A stretch of DNA of 64,000 nucleotides from an uncultured Poribacteria bacterium (GTDB lineage: Bacteria; Poribacteria; WGA-4E; WGA-3G): NCBI GenBank assembly GCA_951813565.1, contig OX638351.1:64001-128000 (forward strand), written 5' to 3'. Below are positions 37,832 through 40,625 of this stretch, piece after piece. Numbering within the stretch: the first letter of the stretch is position 1; each line of letters opens with the position of its first letter. A program made the position numbers and the translations under genes. Below the pieces are notes generated by a model. The model ran no database searches and had not been told where the DNA came from. It saw nothing but the letters and a program-made list of their open reading frames with translations.

Positions 37832-38710
37832 CTACTTCAATACCGACTTTAAATTTCCCCAGGTTGTGGTCAATTTCCGACTGGGTTCAACAGCGAGGAA
37901 TGCTGAATTCTCAGCGAGGTAATTAAGCACGTTCTCCGTGAGATTTCTGAGGTTGTCTCCTTCTTTAGACTTGTTATCAGTGTAAACCCCGTTGTGATGT
38001 CCAAGTGTAATGATCTTTCCATCTTTCACATCGTATTCAACAAAAGGGCGTTCTCCGCCTCCAGCGCCACCACCGCGTGTTTTCGTCCCAAGAATCTTAC
38101 CCGCGGGTGCTGTGGCTCCGAAGTTGTGAAAGTCTGAACTGAATCCTGCCTGCGCCATGCTTGTGAGAAAAATAGGTTCGTTGGTATCAAACCCCTTGAA
38201 AACTGGATGATTTTTGGCATCATCTGTTGGCTTAATGCCGATTTCAGGTGGGCTTTTGCCGAGAGGGGAAAGGTTGCGGGGAATACCACCTTTTTCAACG
38301 CCAAGGTCTGCTACATACCGAAGACCGAGTGCGGAGAGAAATATTCCGCCACCTGCTTCTATATAGTCAAGAATAGCCTTTTTGGTTGCGTCTGCAAGAA
38401 ACGGTTCAGGCAACTTGTTTGTTTCTGTATAGAAGAGCCAAAGCACAGCGAATTGGTCTAATTTTATTGCCGTGCCGCTACTGTTCTTAAAAGTGCCATT
38501 ATTGCCTGTCGTAAGTATTGTCGCTTGATAATTTTCGTCTGCCCATTGGTAAGCAGCTTCCTCAACTTCTCCGAGTTCGTTACTTCCTGCCAACAATCCG
38601 ACAGTTACATCCACCGAGTGTGTCGGCAAAATCACGACTACCGAAAAGAGCAGGACTATGAACAAGCAACGAAATGTTATTGAATGTGCCATTATGTCCA
38701 TCTCCTTCAT
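37832..38710 (-). CDS. Exported protein with class I GATase-like (DUF4960/ThuA-like) domain and C-terminal AVEP...TTWG tail
   Basis: Signal peptide; AILDYIEAGGGIFL, HPVFKG; ends FLAVEPSRKLTTTWGNLKSVLK. Confidence 0.75.
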   Translation of the reverse strand: MKEMDIMAHSITFRCLFIVLLFSVVVILPTHSVDVTVGLLAGSNELGEVEEAAYQWADENYQATILTTGNNGTFKNSSGTAIKLDQFAVLWLFYTETNKLPEPFLADATKKAILDYIEAGGGIFLSALGLRYVADLGVEKGGIPRNLSPLGKSPPEIGIKPTDDAKNHPVFKGFDTNEPIFLTSMAQAGFSSDFHNFGATAPAGKILGTKTRGGGAGGGERPFVEYDVKDGKIITLGHHNGVYTDNKSKEGDNLRNLTENVLNYLAENSAFLAVEPSRKLTTTWGNLKSVLK

Positions 38711-38786
38711 CTGTTTTCTCCAATGATAACATGAATAGTTGGTGTTTGTCTATGTGAATATTAAATATGCAATTTAACATTTTTTT

Positions 38787-38815
38787 TTGACAAAAAAAGG
38801 GATATGTGGTATTTT
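38787..38815 (+). promoter_or_regulatory. Probable sigma70 promoter of the LamG genes
   Basis: TTGACA-17-TATTTT with extended TG. Confidence 0.5.
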
Positions 38816-38964
38816 ATTGAAATCTATCTCATAATAAAAACATGCACACATCAATTATGAGAAATTAAAAGGTGTAGAGATTTATGACCCAACTCACTCG
38901 CATGTGTGTTGATAACCAAGGATTTCTATGATCATTATTTTACAACATAGGATAGGAGAAAAAA

Positions 38965-39750
38965 ATGCGTTTAGATTTAACAAAGATGTTTCACGTCGGC
39001 ATTGCTATTTTAACAATGATCGGAGCAAGCGCGATGTTTGCCCAAGCCGATCTAAGCGATCCAACGCTCTCTGTCTACTATAGTTTTGACGGAGAGGGTG
39101 AGACTGTAAAGGACGGATCTGTTAATGGTAACGACGGCAAAATTGTCGGGAATGTCGCGCGAGAAGAAGGCGTTTTTGATGATGCTGTGGTTTTGGAAAC
39201 CAACACGTGGGTAGATATGAATGGTCCAGAATTTAAGAACGGGCCGGTTGATGGTTTTACAATTGCGGCCTGGATCAATCATACCGGTTCTAATGATCCG
39301 CAAACACTGCTTGATGCGATTGGTACAGACCACGAAAGCGGACTTTTCCACATGGAAATTCGTACCGGTGGTTTTAGATTTTTCCATCGCGATGGGACAA
39401 ATACACAAGTTTTCAATATCAATCCTGGCCCCGTTATTGAAGCGAATAAATGGGTGCATTTCGCGGGAACTTATGACAGTGAAAGCGGTGACGTGAAAAC
39501 TTATATTAATGGTGAGGAAACCCACTCAGCTACTGGTTCCGGTAAATGTTCAAACAATTGGGGTGTAACAGCGGGAATCGGTCACCATAAGAATGAACGC
39601 TGGTATAATGGTCTTCTTGATGAATATTATATATTTAACCGTGCTTTGCCAGTAGATGAAATTATGGATGTGATGAATGGTGCACTGTTGGCTGTGGAAC
39701 CGGAAGGTAAACTCGCCACGACTTGGGGCAGCATTAAATCGAATCGTTAG
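38965..39750 (+). CDS. Exported LamG/concanavalin-A-like protein with AVEP...TTWG tail
   Basis: YYSFD, FTIAAWI, WVHFAGTYD, YING, GLLDEYYIFNRAL; ends LAVEPEGKLATTWGSIKSNR. Confidence 0.9.
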   Translation: MRLDLTKMFHVGIAILTMIGASAMFAQADLSDPTLSVYYSFDGEGETVKDGSVNGNDGKIVGNVAREEGVFDDAVVLETNTWVDMNGPEFKNGPVDGFTIAAWINHTGSNDPQTLLDAIGTDHESGLFHMEIRTGGFRFFHRDGTNTQVFNINPGPVIEANKWVHFAGTYDSESGDVKTYINGEETHSATGSGKCSNNWGVTAGIGHHKNERWYNGLLDEYYIFNRALPVDEIMDVMNGALLAVEPEGKLATTWGSIKSNR

Positions 39751-39771
39751 GTATAACGACATCTTTTTTAT

Positions 39772-39807
39772 GGCTTGAATTCCGCGTTTATTGGATTCAA
39801 GCCTTTT
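39772..39807 (+). terminator. Rho-independent terminator
   Basis: GGCTTGAAT...ATTCAAGCC followed by TTTT. Confidence 0.75.
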
Positions 39808-39845
39808 CTATTTTTTATTATGTAATTTTATATAGGAGGTTAAAA

Positions 39846-40625
39846 ATGCGTTTTGATATGATAAAATCGGTTTCTATCTATTTTGCTGTTTTGGTAATAA
39901 TGGGAACTTGTGTAATCCCTTCCCAAGCAATTAATGACCCAACGTTGTCTGTTTACTATAATTTTGACAAAAAGGGTGATACCGTTGAAGATAGTTCAAT
40001 TAATGGTAACGATGGAAAGGTTGTGGGTAATGCTAAATGGGATGACGGTGTTATAGGCAATGCCATTGCGTTGGAAGCCAACGTGTGGATAGATATGAAT
40101 GGACCGGAATTTAAGAACGCCCCGGTTGATGGTATCACACTTGCGTTTTGGGTTAACCACACCGGTTCAGCTAATGATCAGTCGGTGTTCGACACAGTCG
40201 GTACTGATCATGGGAGCGGACTTTACCACGTCGAAATTGAAACTGAAGGTGTTAGATGGTTTCATCGAGATGGAACAAATACAACTGTCTTCAATATCAG
40301 GCCGGGACCTGTTCTTGAAGCAAATGAATGGGTTCATTTTGCGGGAACTTATGACAGCAATAGCGGTGATGCGAAAACTTATCTGAATGGTGAAGAAACT
40401 CACTCAGTCAAGGGTGCCGGAAAACTCTCAGACAACTGGGGTGCTAAGGCTGGAATCGGTCAACATAACAATGGACGTTGGTTCACGGGACTTCTGGATG
40501 AGTTTTATATCTTTGCTCGTGCCTTGTCGGCAGATGAAATTAAGCAGGTTATGGATGGCGAATTTCTGGCTGTTGAACCTGAAGACAAACTTACTACGAC
40601 TTGGGGAAGTATTAAATCACGTTGA
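39846..40625 (+). CDS. Exported LamG-like protein, tandem paralog, with AVEP...TTWG tail
   Basis: Colinear with 38965..39750; ends LAVEPEDKLTTTWGSIKSR. Confidence 0.9.
   Translation: MRFDMIKSVSIYFAVLVIMGTCVIPSQAINDPTLSVYYNFDKKGDTVEDSSINGNDGKVVGNAKWDDGVIGNAIALEANVWIDMNGPEFKNAPVDGITLAFWVNHTGSANDQSVFDTVGTDHGSGLYHVEIETEGVRWFHRDGTNTTVFNIRPGPVLEANEWVHFAGTYDSNSGDAKTYLNGEETHSVKGAGKLSDNWGAKAGIGQHNNGRWFTGLLDEFYIFARALSADEIKQVMDGEFLAVEPEDKLTTTWGSIKSR

Follow-up and report, generated by a model that had tools for sequence, protein, structure and literature searches.

Short portable tags at the C-terminus of exported proteins are familiar from the LPXTG, PEP-CTERM and GlyGly-CTERM systems, in which a motif is combined with a transmembrane helix and a basic cluster. 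The signals of the T9SS are, to our knowledge, known only as folded domains of 40–100 residues, and secretion by this system is thought to need the PorLM motor. Its type A CTD (TIGR04183, PF18962) is a beta-sandwich of 70–90 residues, and PorV has been reported or modelled to read the CTD beta-sandwich and motifs B, D and E (PMC11969387, PMC11285876). The shortest T9SS signals that our literature search found are of 40–55 residues; those reported from Prevotella intermedia have three strands, motifs B, D and E, a PT/GI site and PorU processing (PMC11969387), and so provide a precedent for a shrunken T9SS signal that keeps its cleavage motif. Type B and C CTDs are described as domains of about 100 residues, with several signal classes using one translocon and some having their own shuttle barrels (PMC10202324, PMC12618676).

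The locus considered here lies in a window of 64,000 nucleotides on contig OX638351.1 of an uncultured Poribacteria bacterium, and contains three neighbouring genes for signal-peptide proteins that end in a common tail, found with their tails just as a sequence-only reading had described them. The first (37832..38710, minus strand, 292 aa) is divergent from the other two and, as that reading had held, has an unrelated body, DUF4960 (PF16324, 43 bits), followed by a tail of 22 residues (37835..37900, minus strand; tail HMM 37.2 bits). The second (38965..39750, plus strand, 261 aa) is a LamG/ConA-like protein (PF13385, 92 bits) with a tail of 21 residues (39685..39747, plus strand; 39.5 bits), and the third (39846..40625, plus strand, 259 aa) is its LamG/ConA-like paralog (PF13385, 64% identical), with a tail of 20 residues (40563..40622, plus strand; 41.0 bits). 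These three genes, at 37–41 bits, are the only ones in the window matched by the tail HMM. The DUF4960 protein matched PDB entries 8aa2_T and 8a9y_T (E 3e-4), chain T of the Bacteroides levan utilisome, and this chain is probably Bt1761, a surface glycan-binding lipoprotein reported as part of that complex (10.1101/2022.08.15.503959). A 63%-identical relative of the third protein is annotated as a LamG domain-containing protein of Candidatus Poribacteria bacterium. AlphaFold2 folded the LamG body of this protein confidently, with generic matches to ConA-like folds, and left the tail (residues 244–259) at pLDDT under 50, without strands and with a short helix predicted at low confidence for residues 253–258, so that in the model the tail lies outside the body domain.

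The source genome (5.43 Mb) holds many more copies, greatly exceeding chance. A loose regular expression applied to all six frames gave 103 matches, 101 of them no more than 10 residues from a stop codon, and an iterated HMM gave 154 matches at 10 bits or more (best reversed-sequence decoy 7.9 bits), with the consensus [LTF]-[APS]-V-[EDS]-P-x-[GDN]-K-L-[TA]-T-T-W-[GA]-x-[LI]-K followed by about 1–6 residues. The claim that the tail is C-terminal stands for the 151 of these 154 matches that end within 16 residues of the stop, and has to be amended for four proteins in which the tail is internal, directly before a full T9SS CTD. TolB-like paralogs with a degenerate tail fell under the HMM threshold (G000:C1 1262244-1271637, 2933686, 4865715), so the true count is nearer 165.

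The bodies of the carriers are diverse. Clustering of 152 proteins, which like the 147 full-length carriers counted below include one 9.0-bit match that is likely a false positive, gave 32 body clusters, dominated by LamG (72 proteins) and TolB-like propellers (21), with CBM9, CBM4/9, NPCBM, F5/8, LDL-receptor, ankyrin and Ig/LTD domains among the smaller ones; 14 of the 27 body representatives scanned had no Pfam match at all. Judged by simple hydropathy and pattern rules rather than SignalP, a signal-like hydrophobic core is present in 143 of the 147 full-length carriers against 700 of 2253 length-matched genes (with automatic starts, 137 of 152 against 1042 of 3777), and the lipobox rule is matched by 4 of 147 carriers against 74 of 700 controls. 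Proteins with a stand-alone tail are small, with a median of 262 aa (10–90% range 228–342). Like the LPXTG, PEP-CTERM and GlyGly-CTERM signals, the tail is short, portable and C-terminal and marks many exported proteins of unrelated kinds, with basic residues after the motif; unlike them, it has no transmembrane helix, the logo showing no hydrophobic stretch and the hydropathy rule finding any such helix in only 2 of 152 carriers, and it has no NCBIfam match. The portable module, the export of its carriers and the lack of a membrane helix were all anticipated by the sequence-only reading, and its view of the tail as a portable C-terminal sorting address is supported, having held against all four refutation tests set beforehand: confinement to one fold, cytoplasmic carriers, internal positions, and a tail integral to the domain.

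The same data bear on whether the tail could be a leftover with no sorting role, be it a CTD linker after truncation, a DNA repeat or the closing element of one fold. Its homology to the pre-CTD linker and the LamG bodies of nearly half of the carriers (72 of 152) speak for this. Every synonymous codon is in use within the tail, however, and no conservation extends 3' of the stop, so the constraint acts on the peptide and a DNA repeat is ruled out; the position outside the LamG model rules out an integral part of that fold, and the 32 body clusters tell against a closing element. In addition, the tail is stricter when terminal than before a CTD, and in an ancient single-copy protein described below no other part is conserved as well. 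The tail is terminal, occurs on many folds and is constrained at the protein level, and the leftover reading, largely refuted, is highly improbable.

The tail was found in 151 of 151 Poribacteria genomes, with 29–357 first-look candidates in each, of which at most 54 per genome were scored, and 146 of the best 150 collection-wide matches lie within 10 residues of the protein end. A related tail, TWGx[IV]KxL[YF]R before the stop, occurs in Eisenbacteria, Krumholzibacteria, Latescibacterota, Zixibacteria and Ignavibacteria. The FCB pattern T-W-G-x-[IV]-K-[AST]-L-[YF]-R, which contains no stop codon, matched at least 129 loci, and the matches listed came from Eisenbacteria, Krumholzibacteriia, Latescibacterota, Zixiibacteriota, Melioribacter, Rosettibacter, Ignavibacteria, Fibrobacteraceae and Gemmatimonadota. 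Among these listed matches, 119 are distinct and in-frame, with no residue left before the stop in 102 and no more than 5 in 117, and they include 29 genomes, 27 with 8–63 copies and two with one copy. The bodies (20 scanned) are again diverse. Two of the 119 matches (L225, L226, 3-506 (-)) have the TWG motif behind a signal peptide, some 60 residues from the N-terminus.

Poribacteria and FCB tails are probably related. They share a core, an upstream [VT]-[PSA]-[VT]-E motif that lay outside the search pattern (40 of 115 FCB tails have [APS][VT][EDS], compared with 11% after shuffling), and an hhalign probability of 88 between their HMMs, in a comparison that is partly circular. The Poribacteria tail has five extra residues between the upstream motif and W, and the FCB-type HMM gave no matches to it in the two Poribacteria genomes searched (G000 and G002), so that the common origin of the two variants is an inference. 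SprA was matched in 41 of the 43 tail-bearing genomes of other phyla, and GldM in none of the 43, with G303 as a positive control.

Among GTDB Bacteroidota a single protein of 130–150 aa, consisting of a signal peptide, an fn3-like domain and the tail, accounts for nearly all occurrences. In 76 orthologs, with a mean column identity of 35%, the tail never varies at T, W, G, K and F, and it is better conserved than the body. This protein is single-copy and kept across GldM-negative Bacteroidota (L193:1500-1907 (-), L249-L268, L324-L343), and could be a core part of a motor-less system rather than its cargo. Its gene often lies upstream of what we take to be a maf-like or pyrR-like gene. In one ortholog, from G167 (L323:1321-1779 (-)), the tail is degenerate: T, W and the spacing of hydrophobic residues are retained, and G and K are lost.

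Across 151 Bacteroidota genomes, SprA was found above cut-off in 120 and GldM in 37, and the short fn3 protein was present in 57 of 83 SprA-positive, GldM-negative genomes against none of the 37 with GldM (G174, which has only a sub-cut-off GldM fragment, was counted as negative). The tail model had no match in any of the 31 SprA-negative Bacteroidota genomes, and in the class of G245, probably Chlorobia, the short protein was present in 7 of 10 SprA-positive and 0 of 51 SprA-negative genomes. Since the genomes are kin and the profile follows taxonomy, it rests on a few independent events. In the genomes compared, nearly every one with the tail has SprA as well, and none of them has GldM. The short protein is absent from 26 of the 83 SprA-positive, GldM-negative genomes, and most of these (e.g., G179, G183, G195) score alike for SprA and seem to form one clade, which offers a natural control for finding the receptor of the tail.

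The tail is also joined to, and exchanged with, the CTD itself. In 4 of the 32 CTD-like ORFs of the source genome it runs straight into a type A CTD that scores above the TIGR04183 cut-off, and such hybrids are present in all of 10 relatives spread over the Poribacteria, where 34 of 62 CTD ends among the top-ranked loci, a sample biased by the query, carry the tail. The tail is homologous to the pre-CTD linker. At the position of W, fixed in terminal tails, 35 hybrids have L (23), F (6) or W (6), so W matters most where the tail is terminal. An LDL-receptor-repeat family of the source genome has three members with the tail and one with a CTD. In G151, five long proteins have T-S-V or T-G-I after an fn3-like domain and then a type A CTD, and the single short one has S-S-V and the TWG tail in that place; this domain also precedes a CTD in G180, G245 and G152, again in long proteins, and the tail in two large proteins of the source genome. 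The tail thus takes the same slot as the T9SS CTD. In most other CTD proteins of G000:C1 (e.g., L056), the element before the CTD is a different one, a putative helix rich in leucine, with T-P or the like at its end.

Both the fusions and the swaps matter for another possibility, that the tail serves as a peptide for docking to a scaffold or carrier, either a surface hub or a CTD-bearing protein, by which small proteins are displayed or hitch-hike through the T9SS. The invariance of W and K hints at a particular protein as partner, the tail adjoins CTDs in cis, and the single-copy fn3 protein keeps its tail better than its body, all of which would suit docking. No scaffold was found, however, and in a model of a hybrid protein the CTD folds while the tail is unstructured (pLDDT 47–60) and not packed on it, so that no contact of the tail with its own CTD is seen; moreover, a single kind of domain and motif can be followed by the tail in place of the CTD. 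We consider docking unlikely.

Less likely still is that the tail forms a cationic amphipathic helix, anchoring its carriers non-covalently to the outer membrane, LPS or peptidoglycan in place of a lipid anchor. The mean net charge of +2.1 over the 10 residues around W fits such a helix, as does one family in which three proteins have the tail and two tail-less paralogs have a lipobox-like cysteine, and the Bacteroides relative of the DUF4960 protein is probably a surface lipoprotein. The hydrophobic moment, an ambiguous test, has no peak at the helical angle, and the fixed W-G-x-[ILV]-K appears stricter than membrane binding would require. An anchor of this kind also leaves unexplained both the absence of the tail from the 51 of 51 SprA-negative genomes of one class and its fusion to CTDs.

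A T9SS is the machinery to which these observations point. The sequence-only reading had set the tail apart from the T9SS CTD and ascribed it to machinery that it could not name; the CTD hybrids, the domain swaps and the co-occurrence with SprA instead link it to the T9SS. The source genome encodes a SprA-like protein of 2168 aa (156 bits, under the family cut-off of 200), three C25/PorU-like proteins (371–420 bits, cut-off 420) with intact His and Cys motifs, and six PorV-family proteins above cut-off, one of which is sister to the PorV clade (support 87). SprA-like matches were found in all 14 Poribacteria examined. Profile searches of the source genome found neither GldM nor GldN (GldN in none of five genomes, in a search that had no positive control), and it is from these two that absence of both motor (PorL/M) and ring (PorK/N) was judged; for PorZ there were partial matches only, the best at 41 bits against a cut-off of 260. 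A report on Poribacteria single-cell genomes described CTDs and no T9SS genes (PMC3909097), a puzzle that the present findings answer. The three PorU-like genes L052, L053 and L054 (1754–2194 aa) lie in one genome, one of them directly upstream of a PorV-family gene. PorV-family genes often adjoin a large protein with a CTD-like end (L004, L007, L009-L011, L298-L322), an arrangement that resembles type B cargo-shuttle pairs. A PorV paralog specific to the tail found no support, as no clade in quick PorV-family trees tracks it, and neither did a clustering of tail genes near machinery genes (14 of 155 tail genes lie no more than 10 kb away, compared with 4.4% of other genes, with no overall shift in distance, p 0.34). 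A predicted complex of the G151 PorV with the short fn3 protein scored 0.01 against a mark of 0.32, and counts neither way.

Judging from sequence, we think it probable that a T9SS with SprA-, PorV- and PorU-like parts and no detectable GldM/GldN motor uses the tail as a portable miniature sorting signal. Sec export would carry the tail proteins to the periplasm, where the half with W-G-x-[ILV]-K, a short helix by prediction, may be read by a component of the T9SS (a PorV-family barrel, SprA or PorU). Small folded cargo (median 262 aa) could then cross through SprA, and large cargo (the CTD-like ORFs have a median of 828 aa, n = 32 including fragments) would use the full Ig-like CTD. The [LTF]-[APS]-V-[EDS] half might be a PorU-type cut site, giving release or surface attachment; this is the weakest step, and one to which we give somewhat less than an even chance. 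The upstream motif resembles the PorU sites reported as PT/GI (PMC11969387) and T/E/D/N|G/A/S (PMC10202324), imperfectly so in Poribacteria: in the source genome V (89%) and A/S (52%) match, but L takes the putative P1 position in 50% of tails and T in 14%, with P at P1' in 28%, which fits the PorU consensus poorly. The fit is closer in the single-copy fn3 protein (e.g., T-A-V, T-S-V). Against the sorting-signal reading stand this poor fit in Poribacteria, the lack in the tail of the beta-sandwich and of motifs B, D and E, the SprA and PorU-like scores of the source genome at or under their cut-offs, the lack of a full PorZ match, the SprA-positive genomes without the short protein (26 of 83, and 3 of 10 in the class of G245), the few independent events behind the profile, the PorV trees, the distances to machinery genes, and the failure of the FCB-type HMM to match the Poribacteria tail.

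Compared with the described classes, the tail resembles the type A CTD in being C-terminal on lectin, propeller and repeat bodies with a Sec signal, in the small-residue/Val motif of the preceding linker, in the presence of SprA-, PorV- and PorU-like genes, and in being found fused to and swapped with the CTD. It differs in its length of about 15–22 rather than 70–90 residues, in having no beta-sandwich and, by the definitions given in PMC11969387, none of motifs B, D and E in its logo, and in being tied to genomes without GldM. It is half as long as the Prevotella intermedia CTDs reported there, has none of their motifs and is predicted to be partly helical. Type B and C CTDs are a precedent for several signal classes, and the six PorV-family genes of the source genome may be seen in that light; unlike them, the tail has no Pfam or NCBIfam match and no cognate barrel gene beside its genes. 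NCBIfam gave no CTD match for the window proteins and seven other stand-alone tail proteins, TIGR04183 being matched among tail proteins only in the four hybrids, and Pfam gave none in 27 stand-alone tail proteins. The tail is thus no member of types A, B or C, having neither their beta-sandwich and motifs nor a match to their HMMs, and yet likely acts like a T9SS CTD. A search of the literature, covering the main text of papers mostly outside subscription, found no published description of it. In the PDB there was nothing for the FCB tail and only chance-level matches for the Poribacteria tail, including ten residues matched near the N-terminus of an 'Adhesin' (8dj2_A, residues 7–16, E 0.28) that we treat as chance. 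The ESM Atlas returned only unnamed clusters under 0.9 for the tail, and unnamed clusters for the short fn3 protein.

There is perhaps an even chance that the tail represents a fourth class of T9SS signal, a peptide of 15–20 residues serving as the standard address of a motor-less and possibly ancestral T9SS in Poribacteria and much of the FCB group. Such a signal would have expanded to 100–350 candidate sites per genome in most Poribacteria and to tens in Eisenbacteria, Krumholzibacteria and Latescibacterota, been kept on one fn3 protein in non-gliding Bacteroidota, and been lost where GldKLMN is present. If so, the function of SprA without a motor and the minimal signal would become testable, and about 150 surface or secreted proteins per genome, mostly lectin-like, would be predicted for a dominant sponge symbiont, with tens per genome in several phyla that lack cultures. 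Carriers in culture include Melioribacter roseus and Rosettibacter primus, and Ignavibacteria that have been cultured have a single copy, so the role of the tail is open to experiment.

The surroundings of the three genes offer some further observations. Terminator-like hairpins follow the first tail gene (37772-37801, minus strand) and the third (40651-40683, plus strand). An outer-membrane barrel is encoded 4 kb from the tail genes (44505-45785, plus strand); it matches the PorV family at 60 bits (cut-off 90), and BamG and FadL weakly as well. ORFs that by eye are transposase-like lie at 33704-34629 (minus strand) and 43245-44372 (plus strand), with more copies elsewhere in the genome.
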